The notes below the pieces were generated by a model that made no database searches, was not told where the DNA came from, and saw only the letters and a program-made list of their open reading frames with translations. The position numbers and the translations under genes are program-made. A stretch of DNA of 50,761 nt from sequence record OR896829.1, one strand, 5' to 3'. This document shows positions 3,685 to 50,749 of this stretch, in pieces. Position 1 is the stretch's first letter. Every line of letters starts with the position of its first letter. The DNA is from Escherichia phage MatMar.

Positions 3685-4797
3685 ATGAAGGCAAAACAAA
3701 GGTTTGATAGTGTGCGCGTCAAAGCGCACTTTGACGATAACGGATTTTTAGTGGATCGCCCAATTGTGGCGCGTATCGGTTTGCAGGAGTACCAAACTCC
3801 TTTCGGCGTTCGACGTGAATTTCGCCCAGCGTCAGAGGTATTCAAGGCCGACTCCCTGGAGACGTTCGCAGGCAAGCCGATCACTATCGGGCATGTTACC
3901 GTCACGCCTGAGAACGCGGAAAAAGTGGTTGTTGGTTCCTGTGCTGGCGCTGGCGTTCCAAACGGGATCGGGGTAGAAGTGCCGTTAAGCATTTACTCTA
4001 AACGCGCGATTGACAGCGCGAAGAAGCGCGCCACTGCGGAAATCTCTGTGGGTTACACTTCCGTTGATATTGATAAGCCAGGCTGGGGAAATAATCAAAC
4101 AGGAGAATATATCTTTGAAGAAGATATGAAAGAAGATTGGAAACCGGATTCTCCTGATTGGGTTAAGTTCGATGCCATTCAGACGAACATCAGAGTTAAT
4201 CATATCGCGCTAGTTTTCCGTGGTCGTGCCGGAGTCGCTAAACTAAACCTTGATAGTGAGCAAGATTTTCCGTATAGTGACGAGGATATTTCAAACAAAG
4301 AGGATGAAAAAATGAACGTTAAAATTAAACTTGATGGAGCTGTAGAATTTGATGTGCCGAAAGAAGTTGCTGCGCACATTGACAACCTGAAAGCTGATGC
4401 CAAAGCTGAGAAAGACAAGGCTGCATCACTTGAGGCAGAGCGCGACGCATTGCAGGCTAAGGTTGATGGCATTCCGGCTAAGATTGAAGAAGCTGTGAAG
4501 CAGGCCAAAGCTGACGCAGAAGCGCACGCCGCGCTTGTTGCTGACGCTACAGAGATTGGCATCAAGTGCGACGGCCTGGACGCAAAAGCAATCAAAGTTG
4601 CTTACATCAAAGAGGTTACTGGTGCGGACGTATCAGACAAGGCTGACGCTTACATCGAAACCGCTTTCGATATTGCGAAGACTTCTGATAAAATGGCAGC
4701 GCAGAGACAAGCAGTTAAGGGTGACTCTTTCTGTTCCAATAAGGAAGACGAAGACAAGCCTCTTAATCCAAACGCTCGCTTTGCTAAACTGAAATAA
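3685..4797 (+). CDS. putative capsid scaffolding protein
   Basis: 370 aa; C-terminal half Ala/Lys/Glu-rich coiled-coil-like (KADAKAEKDKAASLEAERDALQAK...); lies between MuF-like and capsid genes. Confidence 0.4.
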   Translation: MKAKQRFDSVRVKAHFDDNGFLVDRPIVARIGLQEYQTPFGVRREFRPASEVFKADSLETFAGKPITIGHVTVTPENAEKVVVGSCAGAGVPNGIGVEVPLSIYSKRAIDSAKKRATAEISVGYTSVDIDKPGWGNNQTGEYIFEEDMKEDWKPDSPDWVKFDAIQTNIRVNHIALVFRGRAGVAKLNLDSEQDFPYSDEDISNKEDEKMNVKIKLDGAVEFDVPKEVAAHIDNLKADAKAEKDKAASLEAERDALQAKVDGIPAKIEEAVKQAKADAEAHAALVADATEIGIKCDGLDAKAIKVAYIKEVTGADVSDKADAYIETAFDIAKTSDKMAAQRQAVKGDSFCSNKEDEDKPLNPNARFAKLK

Positions 4798-6183: not shown

Positions 6184-6203
6184 TTTAACAAAAAGTGCTA
6201 TCA
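6184..6203 (-). repeat. 22-bp AAATAGCAC element, leftward orientation inside rightward late region
   Basis: + strand reads tttaacaaaaagtgctat; no good -10 on the - strand (TATTCA). Confidence 0.6.
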
Positions 6204-20903: not shown

Positions 20904-20934
20904 CTTTGTATCTCCTTAGTTGTTGTTGTTTCCA

Positions 20935-20979
20935 ACTATACAAGATCTTGAACATCGAGTTTAGCAAAAAGTGCTATTT
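20935..20979 (-). promoter_or_regulatory. AAATAGCAC module (TTGCTA variant) with TATAGT box 21 bp downstream, upstream of lipoprotein operon
   Basis: - strand reads aaatagcactttttgctaaac N21 tatagt then RBS and ATG 20903. Confidence 0.45.
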
Positions 20980-21358
20980 GTTTTTTCTGTTCTCGCTTGT
21001 TATCAAATTCACACCTCCTTAATTTTAGCGCAAAACTTAAACACAAATTGGACAAACAATAGACAGTAAAATCATCTATATACATAAAAAATAAAGAGTT
21101 TATTTATCTATGTATCTATATTTGTTTTTATTTGTTCTCTGTGTTTCATTGGGTTGTGGTGTGTAGCATGTTTGGTGAGTGTATTGATTTATGTAATTAC
21201 AGATGCTCACTGGGTATTGCATATGTATGTATAAAGCTGAGCAGATACGCGAACGCGAGAACAGAAAAATAACAACCTTGATATTCAATCACTTATAATA
21301 TGATTTTGTTCTTAAGCTCAAAAGAAGCGTTTAGAAAACAGAAAAAACAAATCACCTA

Positions 21359-21386
21359 TTGACTAAACGCATCAAATAGCTAAAAT
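21359..21386 (+). promoter_or_regulatory. sigma70-like promoter (TTGACT N16 TAAAAT) upstream of exonuclease operon
   Basis: read directly; spacer contains AAATAGC. Confidence 0.45.
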
Positions 21387-21415
21387 GCAGGCATACCAAC
21401 CAATGAGGACGAATC

Positions 21416-26831: not shown

Positions 26832-27794
26832 TTATAAAAGCGATTCAGGCTTGTAAAGTTTTTTCTCAATGCCATTTTTGAAGTTTCCACCAATCGGCAG
26901 CATAACATCAAGGTTTCTTTCATCGGCGGCGATTATTACATCCCGATCATCTTTATGGCATACGACGCGCATCTTTCGATTTCCTTTGTATCTGTGGGCA
27001 ACCATCTCAAGATTGTAGTTATTGTAGCACGTCCATACTTCTTGCCCCGTCGCAAGGTGCACATGCTGAGCATTTACCCAGTCAGTGCACAAATAGATCG
27101 TCTTATCTGTGCTACCAGTTACAACAACCGATCCGCGCGTGTAATCCTTTGCCAGAAATGATTTATCGCCTTCCTCGGTGATAAAGAGAATATTGCACAT
27201 CTCATCATCCACGCCGTCTTCGTGAACAAGTCGGCACGGAAGCGCGTGAATGTATCGCCCATCCTTAACGCCGCAATCGTAATGACCATCATCAGGCGGG
27301 TAGATTCCTTCAAATACGCTTAAAGGAGTGCGATCAAATTTAAGCGTCTTTGCCATTACTCTTTCACAGCATTCATGGCTGGCCTGCTTCCCGAAATTGT
27401 AGCCGGACGAGCGCGACGCTATCTTGTTAGCCTTTGCCACCACCTCGACCGGAACGAGATTGAGCCAGTCGCCCAGCGTGTTAATTGCTTCGCTATAGCT
27501 TTCCCCGCGCAATCGCATAAACAACCCGATCCCGCTATCGTTACCGCATACGTTGCAGATATTGCCGCCATCACCTTTCTTTGCGAGTTGGTTAGTCCAA
27601 CGAGCGCGATCTTTGCCACCACAATACAGGCACGGTTGATGCTTGCCATTAAAGAAAGATTGAGGCGCATTGCATAGTTTCATTAATGCAGTTTGCCACA
27701 TTCCAAGCATACGCGGTAAAACTTCGTCTTTGTCGTAGTGCATTGTAAACCTCATACAAGAAAAAGCCTGGCAATGATAAACCACGCCAGGCAA
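26832..27794 (-). CDS. DNA primase (zinc-ribbon type)
   Basis: 320 aa; HQPCLYCGGKDRARW ... NICNVCG zinc-binding motif typical of primase zinc-binding domains. Confidence 0.55.
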   Translation of the reverse strand: MPGVVYHCQAFSCMRFTMHYDKDEVLPRMLGMWQTALMKLCNAPQSFFNGKHQPCLYCGGKDRARWTNQLAKKGDGGNICNVCGNDSGIGLFMRLRGESYSEAINTLGDWLNLVPVEVVAKANKIASRSSGYNFGKQASHECCERVMAKTLKFDRTPLSVFEGIYPPDDGHYDCGVKDGRYIHALPCRLVHEDGVDDEMCNILFITEEGDKSFLAKDYTRGSVVVTGSTDKTIYLCTDWVNAQHVHLATGQEVWTCYNNYNLEMVAHRYKGNRKMRVVCHKDDRDVIIAADERNLDVMLPIGGNFKNGIEKKLYKPESLL

Positions 27795-27800
27795 TTAACT

Positions 27801-28277
27801 TTAGCTATTTGTGCTTTTTGGTTCTTTGTAAAATATTCCGCCAGGTTCATAATCGCGCATCGTTACCACTCGCAACATCTCACGACGTTCGCAACGTGTA
27901 ACAAGCGGCTTACCGTTTGAGTCGAATTTTAGATCCGGGCGACAGAATGATGCGCGATAGCCTTTACAGCCATTATATTTGTAGTCATTATGCACGCGTT
28001 GTGCGCCCATCGCTGAAATCATCCCGCGCTTGCGCCACATATTTACAGTTTGCTGGGATACTCCCAATCGACGAGCCATATTTGCCACACCTCCGAAATA
28101 CTCCAGAAGAATATCAAGGCGAGCGGTCAGTCCGGCTTTTACTTCTTCTTTCAGTATGTAATATCCGGTGCGCGGCTTGCGTGGCTTCTTGTCCTTGCCG
28201 CGTCGCGTTCCGTTGTTGCCGTTCAATGTTCTCTTGTCAATCTCACCAGTATAGGCCGCGATTCGCTTTTCTTTCAT
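27801..28277 (-). CDS. HTH DNA-binding protein (putative transcription regulator)
   Basis: 158 aa from ATG at 28277 with GAGGTG RBS (ORF track start 28436 is an upstream alternative codon); helix-turn-helix MARRLGVSQQTVNMWRKRG; basic N-terminal region. Confidence 0.5.
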   Translation of the reverse strand: MKEKRIAAYTGEIDKRTLNGNNGTRRGKDKKPRKPRTGYYILKEEVKAGLTARLDILLEYFGGVANMARRLGVSQQTVNMWRKRGMISAMGAQRVHNDYKYNGCKGYRASFCRPDLKFDSNGKPLVTRCERREMLRVVTMRDYEPGGIFYKEPKSTNS

Positions 28278-28287
28278 TTTGCACCTC

Positions 28288-28330
28288 ATAGCACTTTTTG
28301 TTAAAAATAGCTTTTGAACGTGTGTATTAT
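28288..28330 (+). promoter_or_regulatory. AAATAGCAC module with TATTAT box 21 bp downstream, upstream of helicase gene
   Basis: atagcactttttgttaaaa N21 tattat acacgcc. Confidence 0.45.
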
Positions 28331-28362
28331 ACACGCCTAATGGCTTATTAAAAGAGACAGTT

Positions 28363-30402
28363 ATGATTCCTAATATTGAAAAGCAGATAGCCGCTTTAGG
28401 TGAAGAAACGATCCGAAAAATACAGGAGCGTTTCACGGTTGGCGATATTGTGCCATATCCTTACCAGGTTGTTGCATACACTGAGATCGCAAAGCGTATG
28501 CGAAATTATCAGCATCCATTCTTTATTAAAGCGTCAGTATCAGCAGGCAAAACATTGATGTTTGCAATGGTTGCGGCGCAATGCCGGAAAATGGGCTTGA
28601 AAATGATGGTATTGGCGCGACAGGCTGAAATTGTTGATCAGGATTCAGAGGAGATCACAAATCTCGGCGTGCCAAATTCCATTTATTGTGCCGGACTGAA
28701 AACCAAAAGCGCATACTTTCCTATTGTGGTTGGTTCTGAGGGAACTGTAGTTAACGGCCTGTTTAAGTCACTTGGCGACTATGTTCCGCACGTTATCGGG
28801 ATTGACGAGTGTCATCAGGTGGATTGGGAAGACCTTGCCGACGCGATAGAGAATGATGAATCACTCATTCAAATGACGACAAAAAAGGGCGAGAAAGTAA
28901 AGAATCCAGATTACGACATCACGAACGCCCATGAGTGTGATGAATTCCTGATTGGGGAAGATGGCTTGCCAATGGAAGGAACAGGCCGGACACAGTACAC
29001 CGTTATCATCATGGAAATGATGCGTCGTTGCAGGAAGGAATACGGTCACGAATTGCGTATATTTGGCATGACTGGATCGGAATTTCGCGGCGTGGTTCCA
29101 ATCCTGGTTGAAGATAAAAAACAGAAAGGATTTTGGCGAGAACAGGTTACTAACATAGATACCAACTATCTGATCAAATTCGGTTCGGTTGTGCCAACCA
29201 ATTTTGGCGACGTTGGCGATCTCGGTTATGACCTGTCAGAGTTCGAGGCATCCAGCGAGGACGGAGTTGCAGATTTTGACGCGAAAACGCTTCGCAAAAT
29301 GGAACAGAAGATCCATGAAGAAGCCACTATGACTAAGCGCATCATGGAGAAGGTGCACGAAATATGTAAAAACCGTAACGGCGTATTGGTGACATGTGCA
29401 GGTGAAAGACATTGTAAAGAGGCGGCGGCAGCGTTGCCTCCTGGCACGACTTACCGGATCATCACTGGCAAGACTGGCGACAATCAGCGTAAAGAATGGC
29501 TGAAAGAAGCATACGAGGGGAAAGTAAAATACATCTTCCAGGTGCAGGCGCTAACCACTGGCGTTAACGTGCCGTTTTGGGATACGTCAGTTATTCTGCG
29601 TAAGATTGGATCGCTAACTTTGTTGATTCAGCTTTTAGGTCGCGGTATGCGACTGCTTAAAAAGTGGCACAAAGAGCAGGGCTTTCATAAAGACGATCAT
29701 CTTGTTTTGGACTTTTCCGGCACGATGGACGAGTTAGGAGAGCTTTATTTCGATCCGATACTGGAGCAGGCGCAGCATCAGAAGAGATTCAAAAACGGAA
29801 AAGATCCGAAGCCTTGCCCTGTATGCAAGACGTTAAACAGCTATTACGCTCGACGTTGTATGCACGTAGACGAAAACGGAAACAGATGCGAATGGTTTTT
29901 CAAATACAAGATATGCGAGGATCGGATAGACCAGCGCACCAGAAAGGTTATCCATCACGGCTGTGGTACTAAGAATGATATTGCGGCCAGGGTGTGCAGG
30001 CATTGCGATGTGTCGCTTATTGACCCTAACGAAAAGTTAAGCGGTAAGCACTACACAAAAAACGACTGGTTCCAGGTAAAATCTTTCTCGGTTGACATGA
30101 CGAAAAATCAGAAAGGGATCATCTTCAATTATGAGCTTTCCGACGGCATCGACACATTCAGGGCGCGAGAGATATTTTTCCCTGAATCAGAAAGCCAGAT
30201 TTGCAGGGATAAATGGCGTAGAGTCGCGTTAAAGCATATACCGGATCGCCGTATTGCTGGCATGGTGGCAAGCTATCGCAATGCAAGAAAAATCATGCAA
30301 TATGCGAATCACATCATGCAGCCGTCGATGGTAACTCACCGCAAGACGAGTAAGGGCGAAGATAATCTATACAAGAAGGAGTTTAATTATGGCAATGACT
30401 GA
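28363..30402 (+). CDS. SF2 DNA helicase with C-terminal zinc ribbons
   Basis: 679 aa; Walker A SVSAGKT, DECH box (IGIDECHQ), Cys-x2-Cys pairs near C-terminus. Confidence 0.7.
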   Translation: MIPNIEKQIAALGEETIRKIQERFTVGDIVPYPYQVVAYTEIAKRMRNYQHPFFIKASVSAGKTLMFAMVAAQCRKMGLKMMVLARQAEIVDQDSEEITNLGVPNSIYCAGLKTKSAYFPIVVGSEGTVVNGLFKSLGDYVPHVIGIDECHQVDWEDLADAIENDESLIQMTTKKGEKVKNPDYDITNAHECDEFLIGEDGLPMEGTGRTQYTVIIMEMMRRCRKEYGHELRIFGMTGSEFRGVVPILVEDKKQKGFWREQVTNIDTNYLIKFGSVVPTNFGDVGDLGYDLSEFEASSEDGVADFDAKTLRKMEQKIHEEATMTKRIMEKVHEICKNRNGVLVTCAGERHCKEAAAALPPGTTYRIITGKTGDNQRKEWLKEAYEGKVKYIFQVQALTTGVNVPFWDTSVILRKIGSLTLLIQLLGRGMRLLKKWHKEQGFHKDDHLVLDFSGTMDELGELYFDPILEQAQHQKRFKNGKDPKPCPVCKTLNSYYARRCMHVDENGNRCEWFFKYKICEDRIDQRTRKVIHHGCGTKNDIAARVCRHCDVSLIDPNEKLSGKHYTKNDWFQVKSFSVDMTKNQKGIIFNYELSDGIDTFRAREIFFPESESQICRDKWRRVALKHIPDRRIAGMVASYRNARKIMQYANHIMQPSMVTHRKTSKGEDNLYKKEFNYGND

Positions 30403-35437: not shown

Positions 35438-35756
35438 TCATTTCTCCTATCCGTGCCATATCCCTTATCCATTCATTTTGCATTCCCTCAAAGGTGTAAA
35501 ATTCGAATCCGAACGGCCTACGGGCAGATCCGTCAATGCACCAAAATCTACCTTCAACGCCATCCAGATAACCAGCGCCCATCATTCTTGCGCAAAACTC
35601 TTTCGATAGCATGGAAGCGAACATGCGCGGGGTGAATCCGGCCTGCTTCGCCAGGCGTTCACATTCTCTGTGCTGATAGATAAATTTTGCAATGTGCTGA
35701 CGAGTAAACCAGTCGTAAGACTCACACCATCTGTAGAGATCCAGAATGAACATCAT
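35361..35756 (-). CDS. hypothetical protein
   Basis: 131 aa; start ATG overlaps stop (TAATG) of upstream 527-aa gene. Confidence 0.45.
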   Translation of the reverse strand: MMFILDLYRWCESYDWFTRQHIAKFIYQHRECERLAKQAGFTPRMFASMLSKEFCARMMGAGYLDGVEGRFWCIDGSARRPFGFEFYTFEGMQNEWIRDMARIGEMSDDELFGAKSNRQDIEILRRKFNIT

Positions 35757-37339
35757 TACCCCATTAACACAGGATTCACAAAAATAACACCATTAATAAC
35801 ACAAACGTAGTTTTTTTGCTCAAGCATCGGAAGCAGTTGCGATTCTATGCGCTTCATCACGCCAGCTTGCCCCAGGAAAGGTTTTACCTTGCGTGCTGCC
35901 TCATACAAAGCGCGGACATTCAATACGCCTTTATTTGCCTTACCGTGGCGGGTGATTAACTCAATCAGTTTTGACATCTCGGCATCATCACCAGCATAGC
36001 CGGACGCGTTCGCCGCGCTGATATACGTTTTGCTCAATTCATGGAACATCAGCAAGGCTTCTTGCATCGTGTCAACGTCAATCTCTCTAGACTTTTGCGG
36101 GTATCCAGCAGGATTAAACCAATTGCGTATCACATGCAGAACGGCAGCAATGCGGATCACCTGCTTATCCATTTTACCCAGCGCACCGCGTAGCATCGTA
36201 TGCGAATACTTTCCGCCGTCGGCAAGATGCGGTTCCATATCCTGGCGTGCAATGTTCAGCACGCGCATTGCAGAACGGCTAACTTTCAGAGAAACGTTAA
36301 TTTCGCTCATAATGTTATGCACCAACTGAAAGTATTGCGCTTTCAATTCACCGTCTACTGGTTCGTAAGTTGAATCACCATTCTCATCCACAAATACACG
36401 CGTACCGATTAACGGCTGTTCGCGCACCAGTAGAAAACGCTCGCTTACACCGATGCCACGAGATCCTGCATCCATGATGCCATTAATGGTTTCATCCTGG
36501 GCGATAACACTCATACATCCAAGCGCAAAAAAACTCATGTTATTGTCTGCATTAGAACGGGCGATAGAAACATGGCCGTGATCCCATGCTTTTAACACAA
36601 GTTCGCTGTTAGTTTTGCGCTCGCTATTCGCGTAAGTCAGGCCAAGCAGACTGTTAATACTGGTTGCTTCATCAGAAATAACCGCGAAGTTTCCTTGTCT
36701 GTTATTTATCTTTGCTAATCCCTCTGGTGTGGTGTCGGAGACAGGGAAAACAACATCGCAAAGTTTGCTTAGTTTTTCTTCCAGATCTTCTTTTTCTTGA
36801 TATAGAATCTCCATATCTGCGCCGGAGCGTTCGCTTTTCATCTCCTTTAGTAGTCCGGCAAGTTTTGCCTGTATCTTTTTCCGTTCCTTCTTGCGTTGCT
36901 CGTTGATGCGCTCAACTTCTGCAACCATAGGCGCAATAGCCAGACTGTTAATCGCGGATTTACCTGCCGACGGAGGCTGGCTTGTCACAACGTAAAGCGC
37001 GGTCGGCTGATCGGTTCCGTGGTAGTCAACTGTGAATCGACCAAGCATAGCGGCAGAAATACATCCGATAAAGTGCATGTAGGCCGATGATTCAGGGAAT
37101 TGAACAGATCTCGCAAGATTGCGCGCCAGCTTACCAACTACATCAACATCATTCCCAAGTGAAATGACAGGGTAGCGGTCGTTAGCGCCGTTAATATCTT
37201 CCACCTGGCCCCAATAGCTTGAAGATTGGCGGTATCCGTTGGCCTGAATGGATACACGAACAGGGGAAATACCTTGAGATTCGGCGGTTTCAATGATTTG
37301 TTTCGGTGATAACTGACTTGTTTCAAATGAAAAATTCAT
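35756..37339 (-). CDS. large early protein with P-loop-like motif (putative NTPase)
   Basis: 527 aa; deviant Walker A PPSAGKS and Walker-B-like AVISDEAT separated by charged coiled-coil-like insert. Confidence 0.4.
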   Translation of the reverse strand: MNFSFETSQLSPKQIIETAESQGISPVRVSIQANGYRQSSSYWGQVEDINGANDRYPVISLGNDVDVVGKLARNLARSVQFPESSAYMHFIGCISAAMLGRFTVDYHGTDQPTALYVVTSQPPSAGKSAINSLAIAPMVAEVERINEQRKKERKKIQAKLAGLLKEMKSERSGADMEILYQEKEDLEEKLSKLCDVVFPVSDTTPEGLAKINNRQGNFAVISDEATSINSLLGLTYANSERKTNSELVLKAWDHGHVSIARSNADNNMSFFALGCMSVIAQDETINGIMDAGSRGIGVSERFLLVREQPLIGTRVFVDENGDSTYEPVDGELKAQYFQLVHNIMSEINVSLKVSRSAMRVLNIARQDMEPHLADGGKYSHTMLRGALGKMDKQVIRIAAVLHVIRNWFNPAGYPQKSREIDVDTMQEALLMFHELSKTYISAANASGYAGDDAEMSKLIELITRHGKANKGVLNVRALYEAARKVKPFLGQAGVMKRIESQLLPMLEQKNYVCVINGVIFVNPVLMG

Positions 37340-41006: not shown

Positions 41007-41041
41007 TTGCTATCTCCTGAGCGGTTTGTTTCGATGTGTGT

Positions 41042-41087
41042 AATGTACCCGATCAGAATGATTCGGTTTTAACAAAAAGTGCTATTC
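41042..41087 (-). promoter_or_regulatory. AAATAGCAC module, TACATT at N22, with no gene upstream of it
   Basis: - strand: atggaatagcactttttgttaaaac cgaatcattctgatcggg tacatt acacacatcg, then RBS and ATG 41006. Confidence 0.5.
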
Positions 41088-41681
41088 CATGCCTGGTGCA
41101 TTATTCCAGTTATTCCACGCTCAAAGAATAATCGGAATAAGTTGCTTAACTGTTAAATTGGTTAGTGTGATATGCGTTTACCAGGTTTTTCGATTGATTG
41201 CGTGTGTGATTAATCATGTGTGGCGGGGTGTATAGAAAGTAGTTGCCCTCTCGCCTCGTCCTGGTGGCGTCAGCAAACAGAAGCTGTTTATTTTGTTCGC
41301 GCGTGTTCGCGTTTCAGGGCGGCATGTTTCCGCGCTGTTTTTCAATGTATTGCGAACGCAAAAAACAAAATAAATCCCTTATAATACATTGAAAATAAAG
41401 AATATTTATTTATGTATATATTTATGTGTTATTTCTTGTTAGCGTTGTTAGTGTGGTATGTGATGGTTGCGGTGTCGCTTTGTTGGTATATATATGGATA
41501 GTTGCGCGCCTGGTGGAATGAGTATGTGTATATATACTTTTATTGCGATATTGCGCTAACAGCGCGAACAGAAAGAAAACAAGCGACAAAAACTTATTGC
41601 AAATCATGTTGTTATGTAGCGATTATCTCAAAACGTCGACAACGCGAACAGGCCGCGAACGTTATACGGACAAAATAAACA

Positions 41682-41709
41682 TTGACACGCATGAAATAGC
41701 AATTATAAT
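41682..41709 (+). promoter_or_regulatory. consensus sigma70-like promoter (TTGACA N16 TATAAT) for rightward early operon
   Basis: read directly; spacer contains AAATAGCA. Confidence 0.55.
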
Positions 41710-41740
41710 GGCCTGCAACTGACCAACAGGAGGAATGACA

Positions 41741-42202
41741 ATGAGTCAGAAAACATCGAAAGACTATTGCGACTGGTTGCGAGAGCTTGGTCGACGCCTT
41801 GCAAGCGGCGAGATTGTAGAGCATAAAATGTCAGTTCTCGACCTTGCCGGAATGTTAAACGGCGACGACTACTACAAGGTGACAAAGAATCAGGCATACA
41901 GCCGCACAATAATCAACCGCGTGCCGGAAGTGAAAGCGGTTGGAAAGGTGCGAATCAGAACGGAAGAAACGGAAGACGATAAGTTTTACGTTTTCAGCCT
42001 GAATCGCGACGTTAAGCGCAAGGTGATTACGAGCGAGGACTTGCCAGCAGTCCAGGCAAAGGCGGTTGAAAAGTTCGCCGCTCGCATTCTTGCATCAATG
42101 CCGAACGTTACCGACATGCAAGGCGATAAACTGGCTGGAGCTTGCGAAGGAATAAGTCGCTACCAGGAAATGATCCGCAATCTTGTTAACGAGGAGAAAT
42201 GA
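41741..42202 (+). CDS. hypothetical protein
   Basis: 153 aa from ATG 41741 with AGGAGG RBS. Confidence 0.45.
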   Translation: MSQKTSKDYCDWLRELGRRLASGEIVEHKMSVLDLAGMLNGDDYYKVTKNQAYSRTIINRVPEVKAVGKVRIRTEETEDDKFYVFSLNRDVKRKVITSEDLPAVQAKAVEKFAARILASMPNVTDMQGDKLAGACEGISRYQEMIRNLVNEEK

Positions 42203-49902: not shown

Positions 49903-50141
49903 GCGCGTTACTATTTGTTTTAAGTTATATCCTCACATTTATTGCTGGCTCATTTGCATGGGGATTCCTGACGTCAGTCGCAATAGCTCATCTTGCACGC
50001 AAAGGCAAGGCGGCGTTTGCCATTTACTCAAGCAAGGATGAGAAATGGAATGTTCGCGGTCGATACCTGCGGATCGGACAGGAAATTCACAAGCACATCA
50101 AAGCAATGGACGGAAAAGTGGAATACAAATTGCTTGAGTGA
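49899..50141 (+). CDS. small membrane protein
   Basis: 80 aa; hydrophobic N-terminal helix LLFVLSYILTFIAGSFAWGFL. Confidence 0.4.
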   Translation: MSALLFVLSYILTFIAGSFAWGFLTSVAIAHLARKGKAAFAIYSSKDEKWNVRGRYLRIGQEIHKHIKAMDGKVEYKLLE

Positions 50142-50148
50142 CGAAAAA

Positions 50149-50176
50149 CAGCCCGCCTTTATGGCGGGTTTTTTAT
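50149..50176 (+). terminator. rho-independent terminator-like hairpin
   Basis: cagcccgcc tttat ggcgggtt followed by ttttatt; then extended -10 TGcTATAAT. Confidence 0.55.
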
Positions 50177-50227
50177 TGCCTGTCATTTGCTATAATGATG
50201 CCCTGTTATCAAAAAGGAGAAATGATT

Positions 50228-50749
50228 ATGGCACGCAATCCTGAGCCAGTAGTGAAGGTTCAAAACTTCAAAGAACTATATAACAAGAAATACGGAGATA
50301 TTGTCACCGTGCAGGCCAGCAGCCGCTACACGCCGGAACAGATTTTCGATCTGGCTGTGCGTTACTTTACGTGGGCAGAACAAAACCACATCCAGGCGGC
50401 AGAAACGGCATCTTTCCAGGGTGATGTGTATGAAAGCAAAGTGCATAAGCCGCGAGTGTTTACGCTGACCGGATTTTCTTTGTTTTCCGGTATCTCTGAC
50501 AGCAACATCCAGAGACTGCGAAAACTCCCAGGTTACAGTGATGTTATGGCGTTTATTGATTCCGTTGTATTTGAGCAAAAATTCCAGCTTGCCGCCCACA
50601 ACATGATCAACCCTGGCTTAATCGGCAAAGAGATCGGAATAGACAAGCCAGCAAGCATCAACGTTGAGGCCACGGCTGATTCCAGCATCGAATCCGTGAC
50701 GGCTGAGGAAGTGCGCGAGGCTGTACGCGATATTCTGGATAATATCTAA
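50228..50749 (+). CDS. terminase small subunit (putative)
   Basis: 173 aa from ATG 50228 with AGGAGA RBS; immediately upstream of terL if the window is circularly joined. Confidence 0.5.
   Translation: MARNPEPVVKVQNFKELYNKKYGDIVTVQASSRYTPEQIFDLAVRYFTWAEQNHIQAAETASFQGDVYESKVHKPRVFTLTGFSLFSGISDSNIQRLRKLPGYSDVMAFIDSVVFEQKFQLAAHNMINPGLIGKEIGIDKPASINVEATADSSIESVTAEEVREAVRDILDNI

Follow-up and report, generated by a model that had tools for sequence, protein, structure and literature searches.

What purpose is served by the short repeats that crowd the long non-coding gap between the leftward and rightward early operons of Escherichia phage MatMar (sequence record OR896829.1)? The window, i.e. the whole stretch of 50,761 bp analyzed here, is the complete genome of this T1-like siphophage, and the gap is a divergent intergenic region of 728 bp bounded by open reading frames (ORFs) that run leftward from 41006, in an operon of small genes, and rightward from 41735. 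A first reading of the DNA letters alone (hereafter the sequence-only reading) had noticed in this region a cluster of GCGAAC(A/G) units and proposed that they form either an operator array or the iterons of a replication initiator. We tentatively read the units as this clade's version of short iterons within an origin-like module, termed E1, which occupies the right two thirds of the gap and has a paralog, termed E2, ~20 kb away.

T1 belongs to the seven classical T phages; among coliphages the Drexlerviridae are very common, and they are also met as laboratory contaminants and considered for therapy. Elements of the kind considered here are known, and the origin of the T1-like family is not described in the literature that we searched. 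No origin of replication has been identified in T1-like phages according to two published accounts (PMC11447400, PMC7718038), and a search for a T1 origin, transcription start sites or a pac sequence returned nothing more specific.

The cluster itself is real. The strings quoted by the sequence-only reading were all recovered at their places, and six exact GCGAAC copies lie at positions 41295-41660, i.e. 6 copies in 366 bp against 30 in the other 50.4 kb, a ~27-fold difference in density; an equal density in coding DNA, the outcome named beforehand as contradicting a special role, was not found. Over the whole window, GCGAAC occurs 36 times where 31.7 ± 5.6 copies are expected, and we accordingly rejected a global over-representation: the clustering alone is unusual. 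The longer unit CGCGAAC is present 11 times in the window, 5 times in the intergenic region and 6 times elsewhere. To keep the choice of motif unbiased, all strand-collapsed 6- to 8-mers of the intergenic region were scored against the rest of the genome, and CGCGAAC came out as the top non-AT 7-mer (Poisson p = 5.8e-8, ~3.6e-5 after correction for 613 k-mers). The spacing of the units is equally far from random, with five same-strand [GT]AAC pairs at 9-11 bp in E1 compared to 0.2 ± 0.5 in 1000 dinucleotide shuffles, none of which reached five. Paired units lie one helical turn apart, as at 41295/41305, at 41644/41655 and for CTAACAG/CGAACAG at 41556/41565. E1 therefore contains what is expected of an iteron origin, a clustered short motif in helical register, whose consensus, as read from the sequence, is approximately (C)G(C/N)(G/T)AAC(A/G) in pairs or triplets spaced by one helical turn.

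The units are also ordered with respect to the DNA that they surround. The motif is on the bottom strand in arrays A1 (which includes GTTCGCGCGTGTTCGCG at 41295-41311) and A2, and on the top strand in unit B and arrays D and E, so that arrays of opposite orientation flank an AT-rich center (Table 1). A nearest-neighbor free-energy scan of the whole genome ranked this center first and that of E2 second for lowest duplex stability in 50.7 kb, both at more than 4 standard deviations (SD) from the genome mean, with the same ranking in windows of 40, 60 and 100 bp. An adjacent AT-rich, easily unwound element, the other hallmark of iteron origins, is thus present. Consensus sites for DnaA, integration host factor (IHF), Fis and CRP were found in neither module, which argues against a purely host-factor element. 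Between operator array and initiator iterons, the two options left by the sequence-only reading, the evidence leans toward iterons, because direct repeats at helical spacing prevail among the units, because the opposed arrays surround the least stable DNA and because the core promoter is not overlapped; a classical operator array is the weaker option, since most units lie far upstream of that promoter.

Table 1. Coordinates of the repeat modules, their component parts, neighboring repeats and candidate proteins in the window
Feature	Position	Strand	Remarks
Divergent intergenic region	41007-41734 (728 bp)	.	From the ORF list; module E1 in the right two thirds, other repeats in the left part
TLS-type 21-nt intergenic repeat, AATAGCACTTTTTGTTAAAAC	41066-41086	-	Core AAAAAGTGCTA
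Nested inverted repeats, ATTATTCCAgTTATTCCA ... GAATAATcGGAATAA (TTATTCCA/GGAATAA)	41100-41140
E1 array A1, TGTTTATTTT GTTCGCGCGT GTTCGCG	41285-41311	-	Three TGTT-type units at 10-bp spacing; two exact CGCGAAC(A) (CGCGAACA) on the bottom strand
E1 unit B, TTGCGAACGCAA	41350-41361	+	Small palindrome containing TGCGAACGCA
E1 AT-rich center with conserved box TATAATACATTGAAAATAAAG	41365-41424	.	Candidate unwinding element; TATAAT at 41380-41385
E1 array A2, TTGTTAGCG TTGTTAGTG (TTGTTAGCGTTGTTAGTG)	41436-41453	-	Two units at 9-bp spacing; CTAACAA on the minus strand
E1 G+T-rich spacer with TATATA runs and conserved TATATATGGATAGTTGCGCGC	41454-41552	.
E1 array D, GCGCTAACAG CGCGAACAG (GCGCTAACAGCGCGAACAG)	41553-41571	+	Two units at 9-bp spacing; palindrome GCGCTaacAGCGC at 41553-41565
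E1 array E, CGCGAACAGGC CGCGAACG (CGCGAACAGGCCGCGAACG)	41643-41661	+	Two units at 11-bp spacing
E1 A-rich stretch ACAAAATAAACA, then rightward promoter TTGACA-16-TATAAT	41670-41709	+	Promoter 41682-41709; 12/12 consensus match
Module E2, upstream of exonuclease VIII (recombination operon)	20965-21415	+	Aligned with E1
E2 phased TGTT pair	20987-21004
E2 AT-rich center with TATATACATAAAAAATAAAG	21067-21133
E2 further TGTT units	21121-21147
E2 CGCGAACGCGAGAACAG = CGCGAACG CGAGAACAG	21248-21264
E2 A-rich stretch, then promoter TTGACT-16-TAAAAT	21359-21386 (promoter)
DUF7174 protein, 155 aa, first rightward gene	41735-42202	+	Candidate DNA-binding protein adjoining the repeats
DUF3987 helicase, 527 aa, MCM-like	35756-37339	-	Pfam PF13148; candidate origin-binding helicase
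DNA primase	26832-27794	-	Pfam Zn_Ribbon_Prim, PHROG DNA primase
Cro/YdaS-like helix-turn-helix (HTH) protein	27801-28433		Adjoins the primase
RadD-like SF2 helicase	28363-30402

The same architecture is found a second time in the genome. The sequence-only reading had pointed to one more string, GATACGCGAACGCGAGAACAG (21244-21264, its 'Region A'); it is present, and rather than an isolated match it is part of the complete paralogous module E2. The divergent intergenic region 20904-21415, which contains E2, is paralogous to the first region's right two thirds, and it includes a G+T-rich spacer between the TGTT units and CGCGAACGCGAGAACAG as well as a terminal promoter paralogous to that of E1. 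Along its entire length, E2 keeps ~70% identity in over 130 records of Drexlerviridae although it is non-coding, a high value for non-coding phage DNA and a wider conservation than that of E1, and its family alignment displays the same boxes as E1. Two phased pairs are present in the E2 of the window (p = 0.016). We also considered a concerted evolution of the motif flanks in the two modules, which holds only in part: the window shares GCGAAC in both, while the flanks differ in tonnikala and T1.

We then compared E1 with the homologous intergenic region of T1, of the Rtp-like phage Msk and of 16 further phages that represent six genera or more; these relatives were drawn from GenBank phage records, IMG/VR scans having yielded only 2 loci. 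The E1 core (41291-41581) is ~77% identical in ~70 other phages. Across the relatives, the position of the units, their spacing and a core (G/T)AAC(A/G) are kept while the flanks vary, and phased xxAAC units with a conserved AAC/GTT core occupy the same aligned positions in 14 Tempevirinae from 6 or more genera. GCGAAC itself is not kept, its exact form being confined to four near-identical phages. The motif singled out by the sequence-only reading is therefore present and clustered in the window, but it is the clade-specific version, on sequence grounds, of a family-wide feature whose conserved core is shorter.

This conservation extends to most parts of the module. At array A1, TGTT/GTT columns recur at 10-bp spacing in the 14 Tempevirinae (herni has TGTTATTTCTGTTCCTCGTGTTATC), and at array A2 a TGTT...TGTT pair is kept in the relatives and in E2. 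The position of array D is occupied by CGTTAACAGCGTGAACAG in tonnikala, CGTTAACAGCGTTAACAG in PaulSarasin, CGTGAACATTAGGAACG in PMBT35, CTGTAACGGCTGTAACA in BubbaBully and GATAACAG...GATAACA in JK16, and the equivalent place in T1 carries three copies of CGATTAACA at 9-bp spacing. The AT-rich center with its TATAAT-like box is conserved across the Tempevirinae and recognizable in T1, and the promoter with its A-rich stretch is conserved in the relatives. Unit B occupies the loop between the two 13-bp arms (41339-41351 / 41383-41395) of a perfect inverted repeat; its AAC is kept in the relatives but the stem around it is not. Array E sits in a ~28-nt stretch found in the window's clade only, and tonnikala, PaulSarasin and PMBT35 are without it. 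An excess of phased pairs in E1 was also observed in tonnikala, PaulSarasin, Stevie and phSE-2. Counting AACR versus YGTT on the left and right of the center was uninformative, because the second bottom-strand array lies just to the right of it.

Two observations on the E1 region of the relatives may be added. In Shigella phage JK16 (883-2143), a tandem duplication with a ~585-bp period covers the E1 module, its promoter and the first gene's 5' part, which gives an intergenic region of 1261 bp. Ahead of array D, the relatives also have a conserved (C)TCCGC or CCGGCG box in both modules, and array A1 is followed by a CCGC box; at ~41508-41552 and 21226-21243, the window has TTGCGCGCC/ATTGCG in place of the (C)TCCGC/CCGGCG box.

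Among the closest known systems are the ori and crr of satellite phage P4, whose type I iterons (GGTGAACAG/TGTTCACC) are spaced by 10-11 bp in mixed orientation around an AT-rich stretch. Of the units in the window, CGCGAACAG and CGCTAACAG agree with the P4 iteron at 7/9 positions, which is a resemblance only; at array D of the relatives the matches are exact or 8/9, with GGTGAACAG in DanielBernoulli and CGTGAACAG in tonnikala, and TGTTCAC is found in PaulSarasin, PMBT35, KLB26 and Stevie. As in P4, where ori and crr share the same repeats, there are two separated cis elements, here E1 and E2. In the P4 alpha protein, a DnaG-type primase and an SF3 helicase occur together with an origin-binding domain, a winged helix through which alpha binds DNA (PMC2777425). 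MatMar encodes an alpha-type primase, homologous to the N-terminal primase domain of alpha (residues 13-263, BLASTP E = 1e-10), as well as a helicase with a C-terminal winged helix. This helicase is however MCM-like (SF6, DUF3987) and not SF3, it has no similarity to P4 alpha or its origin-binding domain by BLASTP or hhalign, and it is encoded separately from the primase, 8 kb apart. The window modules, of ~300 bp, further differ from P4 by extra conserved boxes and a promoter. What is shared with P4 is the design, and perhaps the recognition, but not membership.

The iteron-plus-AT-rich origins of lambda (O protein), of iteron plasmids (RepE, pi, TrfA) and of the SaPI islands (Rep helicase) offer another comparison. 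The window repeats are shorter than theirs, with a constant core of 4-5 bp in units of ~9 bp, and more degenerate, and the modules are without a DnaA box in the consensus scan. Unlike those of lambda, they are neither inside an initiator gene nor directly fused to one.

Which protein would bind the units? Two winged-helix candidates emerge from structure models, the C-terminus of the DUF3987 helicase and the N-domain of DUF7174, whose model is winged-helix-like. The AlphaFold model of the helicase (pLDDT 88) has MCM2-7 subunits as top Foldseek matches (E down to 7e-5) and ends in a helix-strand-helix-helix-hairpin winged helix at about residues 450-520, in agreement with the published description of DUF3987 proteins as SF6 replicative helicases with a C-terminal winged HTH (wHTH; Kazlauskas et al, 2016, PMC4889955). 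This winged-helix region diverges faster than the ATPase core. A sequence search of the PDB with the helicase found nothing.

The reading that we favor would work as follows. A phage winged-helix protein, either the C-terminal domain of the DUF3987 helicase or DUF7174, would bind the phased units on one face of the helix; this binding would wrap or bend the DNA and promote the opening of the AT-rich center, after which the DUF3987 helicase and the P4-alpha-type primase would start replication with the host polymerase. No DNA polymerase gene is known in the family. Initiation may also be linked to transcription of the adjoining early operon through the units nearest the promoter. That E1 and E2 are the unmapped replication origins of T1-like phages, at which the MCM-like helicase is targeted to P4-like iterons through its own winged helix or through DUF7174, goes a step further, and we regard it as possible but rather doubtful. 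The system would then represent, in a bacterial virus, an analog of origin-binding helicases that load themselves, and its two cis elements would cooperate like P4 ori and crr. The analysis delivers two defined candidate elements, 41285-41661 (center 41365-41424) and 20987-21264 (center 21067-21133), and names three candidate binding proteins. If they are origins, the modules would reveal the way in which a phage helicase of the MCM type locates its start site, and they would be useful for designing T1-based vectors or replication-defective phages; should the units instead be regulator sites, they define a control element common to two early operons.

Several points weigh against an origin-like iteron module. 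Outside the window's clade the units are degenerate, with only AAC plus a purine constant, and so low-information a core could result from other constraints. The E2 of the relatives has only 0-1 phased pairs, which is not significant. Given that the helicase has no similarity to P4 alpha, the likeness of the iterons may be a coincidence. T1 replication is largely recombination-driven, so that a dedicated origin may be dispensable. Lastly, both modules end in strong sigma-70 promoters, and a promoter-proximal AACGTT unit is in helical register with the -35 hexamer, at 24 nt in E1 and 33 nt in E2, a difference of about one helical turn that fits a transcription-factor site.

This last point leads to the strongest rival, in which the units are the sites of a transcription regulator co-controlling the early sigma-70 promoters at 41682-41709 and 21359-21386. 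Such a regulator could be phage-encoded (DUF7174 or the Cro-like protein) or a host factor, the AT-rich center then being a curved, upstream activating or silencing region. The near-consensus promoters with conserved A-rich upstream stretches speak for it, and candidate proteins are at hand: the Cro/YdaS-like protein adjoins the primase and its T1 homolog is annotated as a transcriptional regulator, while the modeled winged-helix-like domain of DUF7174 would suit a regulator as well. The layout of E1 fits less well. Array E reaches only as far as 41661, which leaves 20 nt up to the -35 hexamer (41682), and the other units are 110-390 bp away, so that no unit overlaps or abuts the -35/-10 hexamers as operator sites do. 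Promoter control does not need opposed direct-repeat arrays around the least stable DNA, and the missing CRP, Fis and IHF sites leave no support for those host factors. Cro-type HTH dimers usually bind dyad-symmetric sites, for which the TTATTCCA/GGAATAA inverted repeats at 41100-41140 are better candidates; most of the E1 units are direct repeats, and two small palindromes are present (41350-41361 and 41553-41565). On balance we consider the regulator reading possible yet rather unlikely, and origin, regulator and other functions of the modules may overlap.

The same intergenic region is where T1-like phages start packaging, which the sequence-only reading missed while being right about the divergent setting, with a perfect sigma-70 promoter in a 728-bp gap. 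The units might then be recognition sites of the small terminase, part of a headful pac site like the P1 pac hexamers or SPP1 pacL/pacR, which they resemble as short repeated motifs on either side of a center. The region is homologous to the one that holds the first position of the T1 record, 538 bp upstream of the corresponding first gene; this record has a terminal repeat of 2.8 kb. In Msk, the terminus was determined by PhageTerm at 36,862, inside the homologous region and with forward packaging (PMC8421802), and the SU57 paper places the pac of T1-like phages in this untranslated region. The Msk terminus corresponds to position 222 of the Msk intergenic region, just to the right of a TTGCA/TGCAAT repeat cluster. 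Projected onto the window, the packaging cut would fall near 41170-41250, which would put array A1 within ~40-140 bp of it, but to its right, and arrays D and E 300-400 bp away. Both the Msk terminus and T1 position 1, ~130 nt and ~215 nt to the left of the AT-rich center respectively, are among lineage-specific TTGCA/TGCAAT repeats. A pac site is moreover expected to be unique, whereas the same arrays and center recur in E2, 20 kb from the genome end. In these two respects, i.e. termini (mapped or assumed) to the left of the module and a second copy away from the terminus, the units differ from P1 and SPP1 pac. The small terminase of MatMar (50138-50749) is P22 gp3-like by Pfam and PHROG. Known members of the P22 gp3-like family use a single short pac sequence, which also counts against a repeated one. 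A pac role of the GCGAAC arrays is thus unlikely, because the projected cut lies to the left of A1 and the second module is far from the terminus, although A1 could contribute to pac. The start of the XY3 record was also considered as a clue to pac and dropped, this record being circular; position 1 of the window is the start of the large terminase gene.

Less probable still is that the module encodes or templates a structured nucleic acid, with the repeats as mere arms of a large palindrome; the structure would be a hairpin for single-strand initiation or a small RNA expressed from the TATAAT box within the module. Positions 41436-41571 do form an imperfect palindrome of ~135 nt in which pairing joins array A2 to array D and the TATATA runs to one another, and it folds far better than shuffled sequences (z = -4.1 and -3.5 for the plus and minus strands, and -4.9 when tested a second time), with similar values in tonnikala and JK16. 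However, z is ~0 in Stevie, herni and BubbaBully despite their conserved arrays, the strong fold being confined to the Warwickvirus clade. RNAalifold on nine relatives gave neither a consensus structure nor compensatory pairs for this stretch, an Rfam scan had no match at E <= 1, and arrays A1, B and E are outside the palindrome. The least probable explanation is that the cluster arose by chance or composition when a stretch was recently duplicated and has no sequence-specific function, as array E, within its clade-specific insertion, resembles a local copy of D and exact GCGAAC is so narrowly distributed, but the enrichment and phasing statistics are strong and the position of the AAC core is kept across genera and between both paralogous modules.

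The left part of the gap contains other repeats. The 21-nt intergenic direct repeat described in TLS and other T1-like phages, aaATAGCACnnnTTGnTAAAA (PMC11447400), has one copy here; its core AAAAAGTGCTA occurs 13 times in the window, i.e. at 41066-41086 and at 6190, 20966, 26721, 28289, 30806, 35232, 37399, 38076, 39990, 42465, 45048 and 47826. Like the GCGAAC units it is an iterated non-coding element of the family, but its copies are single and dispersed upstream of many genes, following the direction in which those are transcribed, and show neither clustering nor phasing. Identity of the GCGAAC units with this element was rejected: the sequences differ, and the TLS element is dispersed and unrelated. 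The nested inverted repeats at 41100-41140 adjoin the projected packaging cut and might accordingly serve as an HTH operator or be recognized by the terminase. They are common to Hanrivervirus phages and T1; the equivalent place carries TAGACC..GGTCTA palindromes in Tlsvirus phages and TTGCA/TGCAAT repeats in T1, Msk, PMBT35 and PaulSarasin. The seemingly empty 728 bp can thus be separated into the leftward promoter repeat, then palindromes that are lineage-specific and close to the packaging cut, then the iteron/AT-rich module, and finally the rightward promoter.

The surroundings of the repeat cluster are ~98% identical to those in Escherichia phages WaterSpirit and BEBK14 (Drexlerviridae, Tempevirinae, Warwickvirus). 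In WaterSpirit, positions 4090-4721 correspond to 41089-41722 of the window, and four small annotated coding sequences (CDS) overlap the repeat arrays and the AT-rich center; these are probably spurious calls. Among the database records, ~15-18 of the MG0656xx series named 'Campylobacter phage' (host Campylobacter jejuni) are T1-like genomes closely matching coliphage sequences, and these labels may reflect mislabeling or contamination.

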